64,000 bases of DNA, taken from a virus. The stretch spans positions 32,001-96,000 of IMG/VR virus record IMGVR_UViG_3300033998_000095; one strand, 5' to 3'. A program made the translations under genes and the position numbers. The notes under the pieces are model-generated. The model ran no database searches, was not told the DNA's origin, and saw nothing but the letters and a program-made list of their open reading frames with translations. This document shows positions 55,200 to 64,000 of the stretch, in pieces; position 1 is the first letter of the stretch, and the number at the start of each line of letters is the position of its first letter.

Positions 55200-56369
55200 A
55201 TGATTATGGGTGATATTTATGAACTGGTAAAAGAGATTGAAGAGGATTTGAAAGAGACTGTTGAGGATATTAGTTTTAATGAAGATATTGAAACCATACC
55301 AACTGGTATAGATCTATTTGATACTATACTTGGTGGTGGAATACCTGTTGGTAAGTTGGTGCTTATAACAGGTGCTCCTGGTGGTGGAAAGACAAGCTTA
55401 GCAATAAGTATGATATCATCTTTGCAAAAGAGATATAAAAATGCTCTTGCTTTATATCTTGATGCTGAACAGTCTATGGGAAAGAAGAGATTGGAAGAAT
55501 TTGATGTTGATACTGATAGGACTATTCTCATTTCCCAAGATCTTACAGTAGAAAAGGTTAGCAAGATAATATCTAAAGCAACTGCATATAGAGAAAATAA
55601 AAAATATAAAGATATTAATGATCCTTTCTTTGTGGTATGGGATAGTGAATCTGCTACCATGACAAATAAACAGTTAGCAGCAAACGATGATCCATCTAAA
55701 GTACTTGGACAAAAGTCAAACATGTTATCATTAGTTATCCCTAAACTGGTAAATGTTGCTAATAAGTATAAAATGACATTTATAGTTATATCTCAATTGA
55801 GAGATAAGATAAGTATGAATCCATTTGCATCTAACTCTCCTGATTTGAAAGGATTAGGTGATAAAAGAATAACTGGTGGAAATGTGATGCGTTTTCATCC
55901 ATTTCAGATCATCTATATGAGACCAAAGGAAGATGTAGATATAGATGTTTATGGATTCTCAGGTGTTATATCTGAAGTTAAATTGATAAAGAATAAGTTG
56001 TTTAGACCAAACATTAAAATTAACATAGTCTTAGATTATATACGTGGTTATAATGATTTTTGGACTAGAGAGTATCTAATAAGACAACATAAAGGTATAA
56101 AAGGTACAGCATGGCAGTATTTAGATAATTATCCAGATGTTAAGTTTAGAAAAAGCGATATCCTTAATATGTATAATACAAATGAGACATTTAGACAGAA
56201 ATTTGATGAATTGTATTATACCTATAAAGAAGAACTTTTGAAATCTACACTTCTAGATACTGCTGTTGTTGATCTTGATGATTCTGAAGAAGCAGATGAA
56301 GAAGATGGTGTTTCTGATGTCAACTACCCACCGCTTATAGAAGCGGAGGCTTGGAAAAGCCTTAGTTGA
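55200..56369 (+). CDS. recA: RecA/UvsX-like recombinase; last 16 aa come from the IscB element
   Basis: IPTGIDLFD..LGGGIP, GAPGGGKT, YLDAEQS, VWDS, SQLRDKI, TGGN, KNK. Confidence 0.92.
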   Translation: MIMGDIYELVKEIEEDLKETVEDISFNEDIETIPTGIDLFDTILGGGIPVGKLVLITGAPGGGKTSLAISMISSLQKRYKNALALYLDAEQSMGKKRLEEFDVDTDRTILISQDLTVEKVSKIISKATAYRENKKYKDINDPFFVVWDSESATMTNKQLAANDDPSKVLGQKSNMLSLVIPKLVNVANKYKMTFIVISQLRDKISMNPFASNSPDLKGLGDKRITGGNVMRFHPFQIIYMRPKEDVDIDVYGFSGVISEVKLIKNKLFRPNIKINIVLDYIRGYNDFWTREYLIRQHKGIKGTAWQYLDNYPDVKFRKSDILNMYNTNETFRQKFDELYYTYKEELLKSTLLDTAVVDLDDSEEADEEDGVSDVNYPPLIEAEAWKSLS

Positions 56370-56545
56370 CTACCCTAAGTCTTAACTGACTACGTTGGAA
56401 TAATTATCTTACCCTGAAATGATGCCCAAGTTTCAGGCTCTAAGGTGGCTCTGTAAAAGTTCTGATGGGTAGGAACGGTCAACCACAATTGGCAGTTATA
56501 CTGCAAAGTTATTCCAACATTGGGGATGGGCAAATAACTCCGAAA
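56319..56545 (+). ncRNA. omegaRNA (HEARO-like) scaffold
   Basis: GTCAACTACCC...GTTGACTACCCTAAG...CTACGTT...AACATTGGGGATGGG upstream of iscB. Confidence 0.85.
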
Positions 56546-56562
56546 GGAGGGCTTAAAGCCAA

Positions 56563-57876
56563 ATGTTAGTATATGTTATTTCAGTTGATGGGAAACCTTT
56601 AATGCCTTGCAAGCCTGCTAAGGTAAGAAAATTGCTGAAAAACAAGAAGGCTAAAATAGTAAAATATGAACCATTTACAATTCAATTATTATTTGAGTGT
56701 GAAAACCAAGTGCAAGATTGTATATTAGGAATTGACGCAGGAAGTAAACATATAGGAATAGCAGTTATAACTGAACAAGGTAATGTGCTTTATCGTGCCG
56801 AAGCAGAATTAAGGCAAGATATAAAAGAAAATATTGAAACAAGGAAACGGCTTCGGCAAGCAAGACGTAATAGAAAAACAAGATATAGAAAACCTAGATT
56901 TCTAAATAGAAAAAGGAAAGAAGGATGGTTACCACCGAGTATACAATCAAGAATTAATGCTCATATAAGACTAGTAAATGATATTGTAAAAATTTTACCT
57001 ATAAGCAGAATAAGAGTAGAAATAGGGCAATTTGATACACAGGCATTAGTTAATCCAGATATTAATGGTATAGAATATCAACAGGGAGAAATGTATGGAT
57101 ATGATAGCGTAAAAGAATATGTAAAAATAAGAGATAATTTTACTTGTCATTATGCAAAATTAAGACCAGACATACCTTGCAATGATATTCTTGAAGTAGA
57201 CCATATTATACCAAGAAGCAAGGGTGGTAGCAATAATCCAAGCAATTTGGTATGTAGTTGTGAAGCACATAATAAAGCAAAAGGCAACATGGAATACAAA
57301 GAATTTACAGGTAAAAATCTACCTAAGATAAAGCAATTTCAGGAAACGGCATTTATGAATGTTCTTAAAGATTATCTTGTGCCTAAACTACAAGAAATAA
57401 TACCAACGCAGTATACTTTTGGACTATACACACGCAGAAAGCGTAAAGAGTGGAATATAGAAAAGTCGCATATAAACGATGCAGTAGTAATTGCAAATAT
57501 AAAACCAATGAAGTATAGCGATAATATATATTATATAAAGCAAGTACGCAAAAAGAAACGTAATTTGCATGAAGAAATACCGCGTAAAGGTAGAAAAGAA
57601 CCTAATAGGAAAGCAAAAAGAAATAGCAAAAATACAAAAGAAATAATTGTAAAAGAAAAGAAGTGGTGCTTGCGGGATAAAGTGTATATACCAGAAATAA
57701 ATAAGATTGGTTTTATATCGGGATTCGCTGGTAATTGGGTATATGTGCAAGATATACAAGGCAATTATTTACAAACAACATCTAAATATAAGCAAATTAG
57801 CACAGAAAAAATTCGATTGGCGTGTAGAAACAACAATTGGATAACCGATTCATCCTCCACTTTCGCTTACGCTTAG
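56563..57876 (+). CDS. iscB: RNA-guided endonuclease IscB
   Basis: PLMP, LGIDAGSK, RQARR, HNH (DHIIPRSKGGSNNPSNL...HN), HINDA. Confidence 0.95.
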   Translation: MLVYVISVDGKPLMPCKPAKVRKLLKNKKAKIVKYEPFTIQLLFECENQVQDCILGIDAGSKHIGIAVITEQGNVLYRAEAELRQDIKENIETRKRLRQARRNRKTRYRKPRFLNRKRKEGWLPPSIQSRINAHIRLVNDIVKILPISRIRVEIGQFDTQALVNPDINGIEYQQGEMYGYDSVKEYVKIRDNFTCHYAKLRPDIPCNDILEVDHIIPRSKGGSNNPSNLVCSCEAHNKAKGNMEYKEFTGKNLPKIKQFQETAFMNVLKDYLVPKLQEIIPTQYTFGLYTRRKRKEWNIEKSHINDAVVIANIKPMKYSDNIYYIKQVRKKKRNLHEEIPRKGRKEPNRKAKRNSKNTKEIIVKEKKWCLRDKVYIPEINKIGFISGFAGNWVYVQDIQGNYLQTTSKYKQISTEKIRLACRNNNWITDSSSTFAYA

Positions 57877-57936
57877 AAGTGGAGGACTTCTCGGTAATTT
57901 AGTTAAACAATAATTATATATGTGGAGGATATTGTC

Positions 57937-58407
57937 ATGTTAAGTATTAATCAGACAAAAGCCAAAATAGCAATAATCTTTAAAGATAAAGATATAGCTC
58001 AGGAAACATTAAATGATATATGGGAAGCTTTTATAGCATTCATGGATGATGAGCTTCCCAGTAGAATTGGTAGTAAGATATTTACCAATCCAATATTTCA
58101 TTCTTCAGCAGCTGGTGAGAAAACAGGCAACATTGAAACTGAAGAATTAAGAGAGCCTATGTTCATAACTAGAAAGTATATAACAGATGTTGATGATTTT
58201 ATTCTTGTACTAAGTGCTTTAAGAAAGTGGAAACAAATGCAAGATAAAGATATCCATATTAGCATTGAAGTACTTGTTAATAAACTAAAATTTCCTTTAT
58301 ATTTACGTAATAATAAATATATACCACCTGACACATATTATCACTTGAAAGTTATTACTAAACAAGAGGAAGAATTTATTAATAAATTGAATGAAAGTTT
58401 ACTATAA
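57937..58407 (+). CDS. Hypothetical protein
   Basis: ATG at 57937 after GGAGG. Confidence 0.6.
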   Translation: MLSINQTKAKIAIIFKDKDIAQETLNDIWEAFIAFMDDELPSRIGSKIFTNPIFHSSAAGEKTGNIETEELREPMFITRKYITDVDDFILVLSALRKWKQMQDKDIHISIEVLVNKLKFPLYLRNNKYIPPDTYYHLKVITKQEEEFINKLNESLL

Positions 58408-58428
58408 AATAATTATTTAAATAGATAA

Positions 58429-59814
58429 ATGGGGGTTAATCCAATTATGATCAAAAATAATAATTTTATCTTGGACATGTTTTATACTTCAGAATTAGAT
58501 AGCGTGGATGCTCAAAAGTTAGTACTGTTTAATGATGCTGATGTATTATGGTTTTATGAACAAGTAGAGTTTAATGGTACTATAATGTATAGAGTTCCAC
58601 GCTATTATTTTACTGATAAACAGGCTACAGATCTAACTACACATGGTGAAGATATTGATTTAAAAATTAAATCAGATTATGCTCCTCAAAGTGAAGCTCA
58701 AAGGTTAGCAATAGAAGCCATAGTTAATAATGATCATGGTTTAATAGCAGCTAAGGTTGGTTTTGGAAAAACATATGTTGCTATAGATGCTATATCTAGA
58801 ATCAAAAAGAAGGCATTGATTGTAGTCAATAAAACAGCACTTATAGATCAGTGGATTGAGAGAATAATCCAATTTACATCTCTCACTGCTGATGATATTG
58901 GTATCATATCTGGCAGAAAGCAAGAATTTAATAAACCCATTTGTATTGCTACTGTTCAGACTCTATTTAGAAGAGTTAAAAACGAAGATAAAGCCTTTAT
59001 TAAAAGTATGTATGAAGCTAATTTTGGTGTTACCTTTTATGATGAATGCCATATAACAGCAGCAGCTCCAACATTTTCAACAAGTATTAAGACTATATTC
59101 TCTAAAAGACTATATGGATTGTCTGCTACGCCATATAGATCAGATGGTCTTGGACAATTATTGAATTGGTTTATAGGCCCAATTATATTTGATGATAGTA
59201 AGTTAAATGTTCCTGTATATGTTGGACTAGTAGACATACCATTGTATATATCTCAAGGATATAAGAAGTATATTGAGTGGTCTAATGACAACAGCATAAT
59301 AACACGCTATTGTAAGTTTCTTAAGAAACAGGATGTTTATATACGTCAGATAGCTAAGACAATAGATGATTTAATAAAATTAGATTTACAAATTTTAGGA
59401 TTGAGTGCAATGATAGATCTTTTGTATATGATATATGATAAATGTCAATATAAACATAAGATATCTATAGTACATTCTTCTGTAGAGGAAAAAGATTATT
59501 CTAAACAATGTATACTAGCTACATATGGAATGTTTAAAGAAGGAATGGATGTTCCACGTTTGAATACTTTAATTTATATAACTCCTATAACTAATAAGAA
59601 CAGTTTAATGCAAAGCATAGGGAGAATCAGTAGATATACATCTGCAGATAAAAAGGCGTTTGTAATAGATATAGTTAATAGTGAATATGAACCATTGAAG
59701 AAGATGAGAGAATATAGGCTTCGCTATTACAAACAATTTGGATTTAAATATGTTAATGCTGATCTGGATAATATAGATAAGTTTATAGAGTATGCACGAG
59801 GAGGTATTATATAA
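58429..59814 (+). CDS. Superfamily 2 helicase, UvsW-like
   Basis: GFGKT, DECH, LSATPYRSDG, EGMDVP, QSIGRISR. Confidence 0.92.
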   Translation: MGVNPIMIKNNNFILDMFYTSELDSVDAQKLVLFNDADVLWFYEQVEFNGTIMYRVPRYYFTDKQATDLTTHGEDIDLKIKSDYAPQSEAQRLAIEAIVNNDHGLIAAKVGFGKTYVAIDAISRIKKKALIVVNKTALIDQWIERIIQFTSLTADDIGIISGRKQEFNKPICIATVQTLFRRVKNEDKAFIKSMYEANFGVTFYDECHITAAAPTFSTSIKTIFSKRLYGLSATPYRSDGLGQLLNWFIGPIIFDDSKLNVPVYVGLVDIPLYISQGYKKYIEWSNDNSIITRYCKFLKKQDVYIRQIAKTIDDLIKLDLQILGLSAMIDLLYMIYDKCQYKHKISIVHSSVEEKDYSKQCILATYGMFKEGMDVPRLNTLIYITPITNKNSLMQSIGRISRYTSADKKAFVIDIVNSEYEPLKKMREYRLRYYKQFGFKYVNADLDNIDKFIEYARGGII

Positions 59815-59815
59815 A

Positions 59816-60748
59816 ATGGATGGACAGAAGAAAGTAAAAAAATGTTTTGTACAGGGTGATATTGAGAGTAATAATGTATATATGACTTCTGGTTTACAAC
59901 CACCAACTGATGCTGATTTGATATATAGAAGTGAGATATCAGCATATACACAACCTTTCAGTAGTGGTGGTTGTTATGATGACAAAACAAAAGTCAGAAC
60001 AGATAATGGATGGAAGTATTTCAAAGATGTAGATATTGATGAAGATCGTTTTTACACTTTTAATATAGATAGTAATAGGATTCAGTTACAGCATGCTATA
60101 AAAAAATTTGATTTCGATATTGATGAAGAATTAATTCATTTTAAAAGTACTGTATTGGATATAATGGTTACAAAAGATCATAATATGGTAATAATAGATA
60201 AAAATGGAAAATATAGAATTGTACAAGCATCAATGGTAGAAGAAATGTTTCAAAAAGGGGAACATATATTTATCCCAACTGCAGAAACAGAGCATGCTTC
60301 TTTAAAAGTACAGAGTATAGAACGAGTACCATATAAAGGAAAAGTATATTGTGTTGAAGTTCCCAATCATGTTTTGTATGTTAAAAGAGAATGTGGTATC
60401 CCTGTTTGGTGTGGAAACTCTATAGAACATGTCTTTCTTGGAGCTAAAGTGTCTGAAAAATTAAAAAAGGATATAATTGATAAGTTATTCGATATGCCAA
60501 TTAATTATATTACATTGTCACCAGTATTGAGCGTATGTAATAATTGTCATTCTAAGTTTGTAGGAGAACATTATGTATGCCCTAATTGCAAAGACGCTGA
60601 TCATATGATGATATATGCTAGGATAATTGGATATGTAAGACCAATCATATCAGGACATATACGCATAGAGAATAATATGATAAATGGTGATGAAAACTAT
60701 TGGCAAGATGCTAGACGTGTTGATTGGGTAGACAGAAATAAGTTATAA
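59816..60748 (+). CDS. nrdD: Class III ribonucleotide reductase NrdD, C-terminal (glycyl-radical) part, containing an intein
   Basis: YMTSG, SSGG|SIEHVFLG, YITLSP, CxxC...CPxC, YARIIGYVRP; ATG at 59816 after GAGGAGG. Confidence 0.9.
   Translation: MDGQKKVKKCFVQGDIESNNVYMTSGLQPPTDADLIYRSEISAYTQPFSSGGCYDDKTKVRTDNGWKYFKDVDIDEDRFYTFNIDSNRIQLQHAIKKFDFDIDEELIHFKSTVLDIMVTKDHNMVIIDKNGKYRIVQASMVEEMFQKGEHIFIPTAETEHASLKVQSIERVPYKGKVYCVEVPNHVLYVKRECGIPVWCGNSIEHVFLGAKVSEKLKKDIIDKLFDMPINYITLSPVLSVCNNCHSKFVGEHYVCPNCKDADHMMIYARIIGYVRPIISGHIRIENNMINGDENYWQDARRVDWVDRNKL
59972..60418 (+). other. Contiguous mini-intein (149 aa, no endonuclease)
   Basis: Starts CYDDKT, block B VTKDH, block F VYCVEV, ends WCGN with +1 Ser. 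Confidence 0.92.
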
Positions 60749-60772
60749 TAAAGGAGCGTATGAAAAGAAAGA

Positions 60773-61180
60773 ATGGGTGAATGCAATTTGTATCTGATTA
60801 AAGCTATATCTATACTAATTGAAGATGAAATATATCCAGATATACTATTACGCATAATGGCATCAGCAAAGACCTCTACACCCATTCTTTATTCATTAGT
60901 AAATATACTTAAAAGAGCAGAATTTATAGATGTACCAGATAAACAGTTGCTATATTTTATTAGTAAACATATAATTAAGTTATCTAAATATATACAAAGT
61001 AATACATCATCTCGTGAATTAATACATGCTAGCATTAAAGATGAACTAGAGTCATTATCAATTTGGATTGATGTTGATAATAATCTTAGTAATTTAGTTT
61101 TAATTCTTTATAAGATGTTTCCAGAAGATCATGATATAGAAAACTTAGTAAAAAAAGTTAATAATATTCTTAAAGACTAA
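60773..61180 (+). CDS. Hypothetical protein
   Basis: 135-aa ORF. Confidence 0.5.
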   Translation: MGECNLYLIKAISILIEDEIYPDILLRIMASAKTSTPILYSLVNILKRAEFIDVPDKQLLYFISKHIIKLSKYIQSNTSSRELIHASIKDELESLSIWIDVDNNLSNLVLILYKMFPEDHDIENLVKKVNNILKD

Positions 61181-61222
61181 TTCTGTAATAGTAGAATAAC
61201 TTTTATTGGGAGGTAATGTTAC

Positions 61223-61846
61223 ATGCGTGAACCAATGTTTTTTAATTTACAATGTTCTTTAGTTGATCATCCTGAGACAATTTCTGCTGTTGTTTATACC
61301 AGATTCTGTAATTGGAATTGCTGGGGTTGCCATAATATGAAGTATTTATTAAAAGGCAAAGATCTGGTATCATATACAATGGAAGATATAATTCAAGCTG
61401 CTAAGAACCCACTTGTTGAATTATTAATTATTACTGGTGGAGAACCTCTTATTCAGGGTGATGAATTTATAGATGCTTTGAGATATCTTAGGCGGAATAT
61501 AGAGAAACCAATTAGATTAGATACCAATGGTACTTCTCCTGAATTAGTGAAACAGGTAAAAGAAGAAGGATTAGTAGATGGGTTTGCTGTAGATGTCAAG
61601 TTTCCATATTGGTTAGAAGATCATGATAATATTTTACAAAAGATAACTGGTACAAAAGATATTGATAAGAGTGCTATACTTAAGACTATGAAGCTGGTTG
61701 ATGGTATGCCTTTTAGTTTATTTAGGACAGTTAAATATCCTATATTGTCAAATGAGCTTTTATCTTGTATAACTACATATATGAAGGATAATTTTACGTC
61801 ACCACATTTTGTGAACACATATTATACGTTTAATAATGTACAATAA
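61223..61846 (+). CDS. nrdG: Anaerobic RNR activating radical-SAM enzyme
   Basis: SLVDHP, CNWNCWGCHN, ITGGEP, LDTNG, AVDVK. Confidence 0.92.
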   Translation: MREPMFFNLQCSLVDHPETISAVVYTRFCNWNCWGCHNMKYLLKGKDLVSYTMEDIIQAAKNPLVELLIITGGEPLIQGDEFIDALRYLRRNIEKPIRLDTNGTSPELVKQVKEEGLVDGFAVDVKFPYWLEDHDNILQKITGTKDIDKSAILKTMKLVDGMPFSLFRTVKYPILSNELLSCITTYMKDNFTSPHFVNTYYTFNNVQ

Positions 61847-61875
61847 TAAAATTATTTAAGGAGGATATAATTATC

Positions 61876-63429
61876 ATGTCAAAGTATACTGAAATAGTTG
61901 ACAAATATCTTAATAGGGATGACATTTCCAGGCATAATAGTAATTTGGTTTATTCTTTACCTGCACTTAATTCAACATTATATGGTGAAGCAAGTAAAGA
62001 ATATTGGTTTGAAAAGGTGTACCCATCATATGCCAGTAAATTGCATGAAGAAGGATGGCTATATATACATAATTTGAGCATATTAGGTCCATATTGTTCT
62101 GGATATTCTGCTGAAGATATAGCTATGAAAGGACTTAATTCCACTGCTGTAAATGGATTAAAGACAGCCCCTCCCAAACATGTACATAGTCTTTTAGGTC
62201 AGTGCAGTAATTTTATTGCATTAATTTCTCAAGAAATACATGGTGCATGTGCTATAAATGATATTACAACAGTAGTGGCAGCCTATCTGTTTGTTGAAAG
62301 AGAGTTATTAAACAGAAATGTTGATTATCAAGATCTAATTAATGCATGGCAGCATTTTATATTTGAAATTAATGTTCCTTTTAGAGCAGGTAATAGTTCT
62401 TTTTCTAATATCACAATGGCATTTGGAGGACCAGATGCTGCTTTAAAGGATGAATTTATTGTATTTGGTGGAAACCATTTAATTAAAAATACTGTTATAC
62501 GTTCTGGAAATACAGAGATTAAACTTGATAGAGATTATAAGTATTCAGATGTACCTGCAAAATATTATGATGAAGTGAATAAAGCATTTATAGAGACTTT
62601 TGCAAAAGGAGATAATAGTGGAAAACCATTCAGTTTTCCTTTGATTACAGTTAATATAACTGATAATTTTGATTTTGATAATGAAATATTTAATATGCTA
62701 CTTGAAGAAATGGATAAATGGGGTGGAGTATATTTTGAAAATTATAGAACCAAACCATTTCTTGAAGATAGCAAATATAAACAATTAAACAAGTATATTA
62801 AAGCTAGAAATATGGAGATGCAGAAATCATTTTGTTGTAGATTTCAAGTCTCTTTAGAGGATATATTGAAAATAAATAGTGGTATATTTAGAAGTGGTTC
62901 TGGTGTGGGTGGTGTTGGTGTATTTAATATTAATCTAAATAGAATTGGATATATAGCTCAAGGTGATTGGGATATATATTTCACTATTTTAGATGATCTT
63001 ATGGAGAAAGCTGAAGAATTAGCACAGGCTAAGAGATGTTTTATAGAAGCGCATAAAGAACTATATCCTTACTTTTTCTTTTATAACCAATCTCTAGATT
63101 CTTATTTTAATGTTATATCTATTTGTGGTGGACATGAATCTCTTATGAATATGGGTTATTCAAAGGGATTACTTTCTGAAGATGGTATTGTTGCTGCTAC
63201 TAAAATAGGTGATTTTATGTGCAAGAAAGTTAATGCACTTATTAAGAGAGATAATATTCCTATAAATTTAGAATATGCTCCATCAGAATCTGCTGCTCCA
63301 AAGATGGCTAAAGCTGATTTGAGTTTCCAGAAATGGATAGAGAATGAGATGCAACCTGAAGATAAGTTTTCCTTTTTCAAGGATATCATAAAGCAGCAGT
63401 ATGAAAAGGGAGTATTCTTTGAGGATTGA
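61876..63429 (+). CDS. nrdD: Class III ribonucleotide reductase NrdD, N-terminal catalytic-barrel part
   Basis: LYIHNL...PYC, FSNIT, PFSFPLIT, SFCCR finger loop, INLNR, EYAPSES; stops before the glycyl-radical domain. Confidence 0.9.
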   Translation: MSKYTEIVDKYLNRDDISRHNSNLVYSLPALNSTLYGEASKEYWFEKVYPSYASKLHEEGWLYIHNLSILGPYCSGYSAEDIAMKGLNSTAVNGLKTAPPKHVHSLLGQCSNFIALISQEIHGACAINDITTVVAAYLFVERELLNRNVDYQDLINAWQHFIFEINVPFRAGNSSFSNITMAFGGPDAALKDEFIVFGGNHLIKNTVIRSGNTEIKLDRDYKYSDVPAKYYDEVNKAFIETFAKGDNSGKPFSFPLITVNITDNFDFDNEIFNMLLEEMDKWGGVYFENYRTKPFLEDSKYKQLNKYIKARNMEMQKSFCCRFQVSLEDILKINSGIFRSGSGVGGVGVFNINLNRIGYIAQGDWDIYFTILDDLMEKAEELAQAKRCFIEAHKELYPYFFFYNQSLDSYFNVISICGGHESLMNMGYSKGLLSEDGIVAATKIGDFMCKKVNALIKRDNIPINLEYAPSESAAPKMAKADLSFQKWIENEMQPEDKFSFFKDIIKQQYEKGVFFED

Positions 63430-63454
63430 CATTGAAAGTACATAATGCTATAAT
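63426..63454 (+). promoter_or_regulatory. Consensus sigma70-type promoter
   Basis: TTGACA-N17-TATAAT with extended -10 TG. Confidence 0.85.
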
Positions 63455-63538
63455 CAAAATGATATATATTACATATTAACTTAATAAACTATTTTTTAAT
63501 ATTTTAAATTATGATTATCTGTGGAGGTAATTGTAATA

Positions 63539-64000
63539 ATGGCTTCCAATTCCTATATACAGGACAGAACACGTAGAAAGAATGTTAGCAGAATTATTGA
63601 TAAAGTAATTATACGTGATTATGTCTCCAATCATTTTCAAACAGCTGTCTTTAGCTTAGAAGATATGGATACTCAAGATAATATATTTTCTAAGTTTGAT
63701 ATTATTTATGGTATTGATCATTTTCACTTTGCAAAGAATGAGCGTGCTAAATTGACAACATTTGCGACATCTAATAGAATATGTTTTTATACCAGTACAC
63801 CAAAGTATTATTTTCAGATTAAATTTCATCGTAGTACATATGAAACAGAATATGAAAAATGGAAAAGATATATAGAGAATTCAAAACAATTTCAAAAAGA
63901 GTTTCTCATTATACCAACCTATTTTATTCAATCTATTGTACAAGAGGATTTGAGACGTTTAATTGAATGGTATCTTGCAAAAGATTGGAAAGTAGAAGAT
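63539..64000 (+). CDS. Hypothetical protein (runs off window)
   Basis: GGAGGT SD; open frame MASNSYIQDRTRRKN... to the window edge; not in the track. Confidence 0.65.
   Translation, partial: MASNSYIQDRTRRKNVSRIIDKVIIRDYVSNHFQTAVFSLEDMDTQDNIFSKFDIIYGIDHFHFAKNERAKLTTFATSNRICFYTSTPKYYFQIKFHRSTYETEYEKWKRYIENSKQFQKEFLIIPTYFIQSIVQEDLRRLIEWYLAKDWKVED

Follow-up and report, generated by a model that had tools for sequence, protein, structure and literature searches.

A phage nrdD gene divided into two cistrons in swapped order around nrdG probably encodes a two-chain class III ribonucleotide reductase

How can an enzyme be made from a gene whose end lies upstream of its beginning? This question is raised by a stretch of 64,000 nucleotides (nt) from the IMG/VR virus record IMGVR_UViG_3300033998_000095. 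The stretch, which we call the window, comprises bases 32001-96000 of the 112-kb record, and the coordinates given below are window positions. In it, nrdD, the gene of the class III ribonucleotide reductase (RNR), is present as two pieces. The piece encoding the C-terminal part of the enzyme (C-part), including the radical glycine, comes first, and is followed by an additional open reading frame (ORF X), by the activase gene nrdG and, last, by the piece encoding the N-terminal part (N-part). The literature that we searched regards class III RNR as a glycyl radical enzyme made of a single chain. A first-pass annotation, made from the letters of this DNA, had described this gene order and had proposed a two-subunit glycyl-radical enzyme with the radical domain supplied in trans; the ORFs are as it described them. 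Our analysis indicates that the phage probably makes an obligate two-chain NrdD, whose parts would assemble without splicing at the break.

To locate the two pieces on the complete enzyme, we compared them with family profiles and with single-chain NrdD proteins. On the Pfam family NRDD (562 positions), the N-part covers positions 2-428 (E 7.7e-70) and the portion of the C-part that follows an intein, described below, covers positions 469-545. On the NCBIfam family NF006126 (684 positions), the N-part covers positions 100-542 and an intein-less orthologue of the C-part covers positions 546-666. In the comparison with the one-chain NrdD of Clostridium phage FA67 (656 amino acids, aa), residues 15-492 of the N-part align to residues 24-482 with 43% identity, and the C-part maps to residues 475-523 and 523-634; the C-extein also aligns to residues 551-627 of the T. 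maritima NrdD. Alignment to full-length NrdD had been named in the first-pass annotation as the way to check its proposal, and the coverage on Pfam, NF006126 and FA67 NrdD turned out to be complementary, with no core segment missing. Taken singly, each piece scores too low for the equivalog cut-offs of NCBIfam. When the entire 112-kb record was searched with the NRDD profile, no NrdD piece besides the N-part and the C-part was found, and no full-length NrdD.

The conserved motifs are divided between the two pieces. The N-part ends 48 residues past the motif EYAPSES, and its cysteines C74 (in PYCSG) and C320-C321, together with R322 (in FCCRFQ), are invariant in 32 N-parts; we take C74 and the C320-C321 region to be the equivalents of C79 and C290 of the T4 enzyme. 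The C-part carries CNNC...CPNC and ARIIGYVRP, that is, a four-Cys zinc ribbon ahead of the RxxGY radical motif, as the earlier reading had reported. In an alignment of 10 C-parts (A3), the four zinc cysteines and the R, G, Y, R and P of the radical motif are invariant. The nrdG product matches Pfam Radical_SAM (E 5.5e-17, above the cut-off) and Fer4_12; its best NCBIfam match is TIGR02495, NrdG2 (E 8.8e-29, 100 bits), which is under the equivalog cut-off of 131, and it is 33% identical to the product of the gene that follows nrdD in FA67. The C-part gene, ORF X, nrdG and the N-part gene are four tightly spaced cistrons on the + strand, separated by 24, 42 and 29 nt. Each has its own start and stop codon, and no terminator-like site was found between them. 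A clear Shine-Dalgarno sequence (SD) of the GGAGG type precedes the C-part, nrdG and N-part genes, so that each NrdD part does have its own SD (GAGGAGG and AGGAGG), as had been claimed; the ATG of the C-part gene, at 59816, lies 9 nt past its GAGGAGG.

The C-part ORF also contains a putative class 1 mini-intein that the first-pass annotation did not mention. This segment of 149 aa (59972-60418) is missing from 8 intein-less orthologues, including those of contigs L070-L073, L005, L007, L047 and L049. It has Cys1, a block B with TKDH, a C-terminal ...VWCGN and a Ser at position +1. The penultimate residue of an intein is usually His; in this intein it is Gly (WCGN), as it is in the relative L068. 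The intein matches chain 2JMZ of the MJ0781 intein with an E value of 1e-3 and Pfam Intein_splicing (PF14890) with an E value of 0.0025 and 18 bits, below the cut-off of 35.8; its matches to the AceL NrdHF and Spl DnaX inteins are weaker than that to 2JMZ. A tblastn search revealed relatives inside the RNR genes of Staphylococcus, Vibrio and Pectobacterium phages and also in unannotated records of Lak phages. The presence of relatives in the RNR genes of several unrelated phages suggests that inteins have been exchanged among phage RNR genes. In addition, we noted that 50 nt of the intein (60321-60370) share 88% identity with the class Ia RNR alpha genes of Silviavirus phages of Staphylococcus. 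The intein is limited to the nearest relatives (N-part identity of at least 87%) and is sited well away from the break. Ordinary protein splicing in cis would remove it from the precursor, and the resulting chain of approximately 161 aa would match the intein-less orthologues (158-163 aa) in size.

To learn whether the arrangement exists elsewhere, we scanned viral contigs with an alignment as the query, a single-sequence query having returned no matches. The layout helicase-C-X-nrdG-N was found in approximately 17 independently assembled contigs (L005/L006, L063-L077 and L084), the gene in slot X being a different one in L005. These contigs come from many separate metagenomes, the source samples of L063-L077 being of the anaerobic digester and sludge type, with N-part identities of 50-99% and GC contents of 25-48%, and four near-identical independent assemblies (L063-L066) keep the same gene order. 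A protein search with an intein-less C-part revealed 20 clusters of stand-alone C-parts of 156-163 aa. The ratio of nonsynonymous to synonymous substitution rates (dN/dS), estimated by the Nei-Gojobori method with dS values >1 (saturated) that make the ratios rough, was 0.058 for the N-part, 0.085 for the N-extein (in comparison with L068), 0.036 for the C-extein and 0.09 for nrdG; it was 0.20 for the intein and 0.26-0.33 for ORF X. These sequence comparisons indicate that both halves of NrdD are under strong purifying selection. In the contigs L067-L069 (e.g. L068:5797-6651), whose N-parts show 87% identity, an ORF of 284 aa is inserted between nrdG and the N-part gene; therefore, the junctions between these cistrons accept insertions. 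We also observed an N-part 100% identical to that of the window on a 6.7-kb contig (L008, CALMHN010000191.1) binned in a metagenome-assembled genome (MAG) titled 'uncultured bacterium'; most likely, this contig is of phage origin and was placed in the bin of a bacterium.

Where does the break lie in the fold? We examined the 660-aa NrdD of contig L079, the nearest fused relative, in an AlphaFold2 model (predicted local distance difference test, pLDDT, 83; predicted TM-score, pTM, 0.87), which matches T. maritima NrdD (Foldseek E 1.5e-23, TM-score 0.65-0.72) and T4 NrdD. The break corresponds to L079 residues ~492-499, which are within a well-predicted coil (482-523) between the helices 465-481 and 524-539. 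The C-part corresponds to residues ~492-660, comprising the helix 524-539, the strand 542-548, the helix 554-565, the strand 569-576, the zinc ribbon and the glycine loop, and the GG-S site of the intein is in the strand 542-548. The small chain thus appears in the model to be about a quarter of the enzyme and to include the two beta-alpha units with which the barrel ends; in placing these strands in the barrel we presume the general NrdD fold. This content would fit fragment complementation better than a detachable cap. Of the earlier proposal, the two-subunit enzyme stands as the best reading, given the conserved swapped order and the lack of a splicing signal at the break, but its detached piece is more than the radical domain. 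In all 19 of 19 split pairs, the head of the C-part is basic (mean +3.1) and the tail of the N-part acidic or neutral (mean -2.2), unlike the junctions of fused proteins. Lys-rich N-termini are common for translational reasons; given this, we do not claim that the opposite charges serve docking, although they may aid it.

The separate radical-bearing chain might further be an exchangeable part. The first-pass annotation had pointed to GrcA/YfiD, the spare part of pyruvate formate-lyase (PFL), and on this model the subunit of ~160 aa would be replaced after oxygen cleaves the radical glycine. The proposal adds to the two-chain model and does not replace it, and we do not favour it. The radical glycine does sit on a separate small chain, the C cistron is the first of the operon, ahead of the activase gene, and a 2026 review, in which spare-part proteins are known for formate lyases only, leaves the matter undetermined for other glycyl radical enzymes (PMC13450708). 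However, the 112-kb record contains no full-length NrdD that such a part could rescue and no extra copies of the C-part, and the piece exceeds a radical domain: the apparent two barrel strands and the zinc ribbon suggest a tightly integrated subunit rather than a swappable cap. Because no full-length NrdD is present in the record, we consider the C-part a regular subunit, and a spare-part role unlikely. We attach similarly little weight to the idea that detaching the radical-bearing quarter was adaptive, such that activation by NrdG would take place on the free small chain, whose glycine is accessible while it is off the enzyme, and the activated or a fresh small chain could then be swapped into the large chain once oxygen has caused damage. 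If this were true, it would be the first case, beyond the formate lyases, of a glycyl radical enzyme with a spare-part-like, renewable radical module, and the position of the C cistron ahead of nrdG and N would reflect the order of assembly.

The first-pass annotation had presented the locus as a lone oddity, but the same break is fixed in the Desulfurobacteriaceae in the normal gene order. We found the order nrdG-N-C in 15 of 15 loci of the Desulfurobacteriaceae type whose contig extends beyond the N-part; 13 of these are titled Desulfurobacteriaceae, Desulfurobacterium or Thermovibrio and 2 just 'uncultured bacterium'. The phage contig L007/L086 has this collinear order too. In the Desulfurobacteriaceae-type loci, an N-part of ~520 aa, often with inteins, and a C-part of ~175 aa are encoded by separate cistrons, some of which overlap. 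As a separate observation, the N-parts of collinear split NrdDs hold one or two large inteins (ORFs of 926-1378 aa; L007:5621-8953 and L054-L058), at sites other than that of the window's intein. Both split types are broken at the same position, past a helix-like segment (F..F..I..QY..GVFF in the phages, LN.FI.E...KFGE.IF in the Desulfurobacteriaceae) and immediately ahead of the strand x[FY]V[QN]GD. The fused NrdDs of archaea and Aquificaceae have an equivalent segment, F..F..L..E..W, before an IYVxG strand. Since fused NrdDs hold the equivalent segment at the same place, the tail of the N-part is native NrdD sequence; we had also considered that this tail was an added docking module, which the alignment with these fused proteins ruled out.

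These findings bear on the scenario in which a trans-splicing intron or a split intein joins the two halves covalently into an ordinary single-chain NrdD. This phage is rich in mobile elements, with the intein in its C-part and an IscB/HEARO element nearby, and phage T4 and the Jug phages are known to have nrdD genes split by introns (PMC3653736, PMC12880540). However, a search of 55500-64000 with Rfam at E values up to 1, which detects described RNA families only, revealed no group I or group II intron or other intron family; the matches were HEARO and one chance-level snoRNA. At the break between N-part and C-part, there are no intein blocks and no Cys/Ser/Thr +1 junction pattern. A split intein does not fit, because the head of the C-part, with only ~9 residues ahead of the first conserved strand, is not long enough to be half of an intein, and the tail of the N-part, conserved at the protein level, is native sequence. 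Moreover, each of the two cistrons ends in a stop codon of its own, and in the collinear relatives the N and C cistrons overlap or are irregularly spaced (-160 to +65 nt). The earlier statement that no split-intein or intron motif is visible at the break was thus borne out, and we consider covalent rejoining very improbable. Finally, that the pieces are decaying remnants or an assembly artefact is barely credible even though the record is incomplete and the MAG contig L008 begins 28 nt ahead of the N-part, because the layout recurs in ~17 contigs, with the order unchanged in L063-L066, four independent assemblies, and in relatives with as little as 50% identity (misassembly being what the first-pass annotation had itself named as a refutation), and because both halves keep all catalytic residues under strong purifying selection, with dN/dS values of ~0.04-0.09.

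To trace the origin of the split and of the swapped order, we examined the fused relatives and built a phylogenetic tree. In Aquificaceae and many archaea, a fused nrdD is followed by nrdG. The nearest fused relatives are the contigs L078-L083 (e.g. L079:6992-8971), and an nrdG fragment was detected just upstream of the fused nrdD in one of these contigs, L082. Read with translation table 11, these genes would seem to be multiply broken, a reading that we ruled out: they are intact fused genes with TGA = Gly. Because every in-frame TGA sits at a conserved Gly, these contigs use code 25 (UGA=Gly). Code 25 is that of Gracilibacteria/Absconditabacteria or their phages. In the maximum likelihood tree of 47 concatenated or fused NrdD sequences, the swapped-order clade is monophyletic (SH-like approximate likelihood ratio test, SH-aLRT, 99) and clusters with the fused forms of code 25 (97). 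Monophyly also holds for the collinear-split clade (100), a weakly supported sister (82) to the group of swapped-order and code-25 forms. Constraining all split forms to one clade costs 17.4 log-likelihood units, with a borderline p = 0.046 in the approximately unbiased (AU) test.

Because the same break is fixed in the Desulfurobacteriaceae in the normal order, the split and the swap are separable events. In collinear and swapped-order loci alike, nrdG is directly upstream of the N-part gene; this suggests that in the swap the C cistron left its place behind N for one ahead of nrdG. The swapped order would also result if nrdG-N-C had been duplicated in tandem and the outer copies had then been lost. 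Once the gene had been split into independent cistrons, the gene order would have been unconstrained, and the swap might have occurred after the fission or together with it.

Taken together, the explanation that we prefer is that of two chains translated from separate cistrons of one operon, C-X-nrdG-N, with no splicing of RNA or protein across the break. The N-part would form most of the barrel and carry the conserved active-site cysteines. The small chain, left after the intein has been removed, would supply the apparent last two beta-alpha barrel units, the four-Cys zinc ribbon and the radical glycine of RIIGY. The two chains would associate non-covalently by fragment complementation, and NrdG would place the radical on the small chain. 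Several points weigh against this explanation. First, the complex of N and C chains and its activity are read from sequence, and the selection estimates that favour both halves come from saturated comparisons. Second, the record is ~41% complete (CheckV), so a full-length nrdD may exist elsewhere in the phage or in its host. Third, with Gly in place of the usual penultimate His, the splicing competence of the intein is assumed. Fourth, the tree is compatible both with one split followed by re-fusion in the code-25 lineage and with two splits at the same permissive loop.

The features of the locus, in a window with a GC content of ~29%, are listed in Table 1. The sigma-70-like promoter that overlaps the N-part stop codon probably starts the next transcription unit and would mark the 3' limit of the RNR cluster. 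Two genes upstream of the RNR cluster, we observed an IscB-like protein of 437 aa (Pfam RRXRR, E 1.4e-67, and HNH), which together with its omega RNA occupies 56319-57876; the full-length HEARO/omega RNA (Rfam RF02033, 135.8 bits, 56319-56538) directly precedes the IscB-like gene.

Table 1. Features of the split nrdD locus and its borders (window positions)
Feature	Position	Strand	Remarks
ResIII/DEAD-type helicase	58429-59814	+	directly 5' of NrdD C-part gene; stop TAA 59812-59814
Shine-Dalgarno GAGGAGG of C-part gene	59799..59805	+	read from sequence; within 3' end of helicase gene
NrdD C-part precursor, 310 aa (N-extein, mini-intein, C-extein)	59816..60748	+	ORF list, Pfam, NCBIfam, alignments
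N-extein, 52 aa: basic head MDGQKKVKKC, strand FVQGD, YMTSGLQPP motif, GG at splice junction	59816..59971	+	corresponds to FA67 NrdD 475-523 and to the start of all intein-less C-parts
Putative mini-intein, 149 aa, without endonuclease domain	59972..60418	+	exact in-frame insertion between GG and S(IEH)
C-extein, 109 aa: SIEHVFLG strand, helix, INYITLSP strand, zinc ribbon, RIIGY	60419..60748	+	Pfam NRDD 469-545
Four-Cys zinc ribbon codons	60536-60589	+	in C-extein
Radical Gly codon of RIIGY	60629-60631	+	in C-extein
ORF X, 135 aa, clade-specific helical protein (model)	60773..61180	+	between C-part gene and nrdG
nrdG, radical-SAM activase, 207 aa	61223..61846	+	Pfam Radical_SAM, Fer4_12; SD GGGAGG
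NrdD N-part, 517 aa, helix-like tail FSFFKDIIKQQYEKGVFFED	61876..63429	+	Pfam NRDD; SD AGGAGG
Sigma-70-like extended -10 promoter: TTGACA, 17 nt, TG-TATAAT	63426..63454	+	12/12 consensus; overlaps N-part stop codon

ORF X has homologues in the same slot in L063-L074 and L084, and a profile search among 1.8 billion proteins revealed 16 same-size representatives. No match to ORF X was found in Pfam, NCBIfam or PHROG, and a protein-atlas lookup gave no lead (best score 0.75). Its AlphaFold2 model is a 7-helix bundle (pLDDT 90), for which no Foldseek match reached E <= 0.001 and VIA-align gave a Z of 4.1 at best. Together with its dN/dS values, these comparisons indicate that ORF X is a real, fast-evolving, clade-specific gene. 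In L005, the deepest swapped-order lineage, the X slot holds an unrelated ORF of 307 aa, which showed no match to ORF X in hhalign. Because an unrelated ORF takes its slot there, ORF X is not needed for the split enzyme.

A conserved natural two-chain NrdD, present in swapped order in a broad phage clade and in normal order in a family of vent bacteria, would be a ready system in which to study the access of NrdG to the buried glycine and the possible separate activation or replacement of the radical module. It would also be a natural guide to the barrel sites that tolerate fission, and it provides a clean example of a gene order freed after a gene split. Annotation pipelines will in practice label both genes as partial or broken; both pieces fall short of the equivalog cut-offs. 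In our literature search, we found no paper on a two-polypeptide class III RNR or on the swapped gene order, and none on the collinear split NrdD of Desulfurobacteriaceae.

Split RNR genes of phages are well documented, mostly with introns, inteins and homing endonucleases, and nrdD is the gene most often interrupted (PMC3653736, PMC12880540). Assembly of two polypeptides without splicing has been described for the class Ia NrdA of Aeromonas phage Aeh1 (PMC3045599) and for the split class II catalytic subunit NrdJa/NrdJb of Pseudomonas aeruginosa (PMC4520616). Unlike the enzyme of the window, these belong to other RNR classes, are encoded in the normal order and do not bear the radical-bearing residue on the small piece. 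The split in Aeh1 was caused by the insertion of a homing endonuclease, which also supplied interaction domains (PMC3045599), whereas no such element remains at the NrdD break of the window.

GrcA/YfiD and Y06I of T4 are autonomous glycyl-radical 'spare parts' of PFL (PMC8683613; PMC13450708). Like them, the C-part is a small stand-alone protein with a radical glycine, presumably activated by its cognate radical-SAM activase. However, GrcA resembles just the C-terminal radical domain of PFL (PMC13450708), occurs alongside the full-length PFL and stands in for no more than the damaged radical domain of that enzyme, whereas the C-part has no full-length partner in the record and also carries the apparent two barrel units and the zinc ribbon.

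The closest parallel is the collinear split NrdD of the Desulfurobacteriaceae and of L007/L086. It shares with the locus of the window the break position, the basic head of the C-part, the acidic tail of the N-part and an nrdG directly upstream of N, and its C-part is of a similar size; it differs in the order nrdG-N-C, in that its inteins, if any, are in the N-part, and in forming a separate clade. Finally, in comparison with the single-chain NrdD and NrdG of phage T4 (1H78/1H79/1H7A) and T. maritima (4COI/4U3E), the system of the window has the same Pfam and NCBIfam family, the same fold (as judged from the nearest fused relative), the zinc ribbon, the RxxGY motif, the cysteines and an adjacent nrdG. 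In the window, however, the chain is broken ~165 residues from its C-terminus into two cistrons, the C cistron stands upstream of nrdG and N, and the small chain carries a mini-intein.

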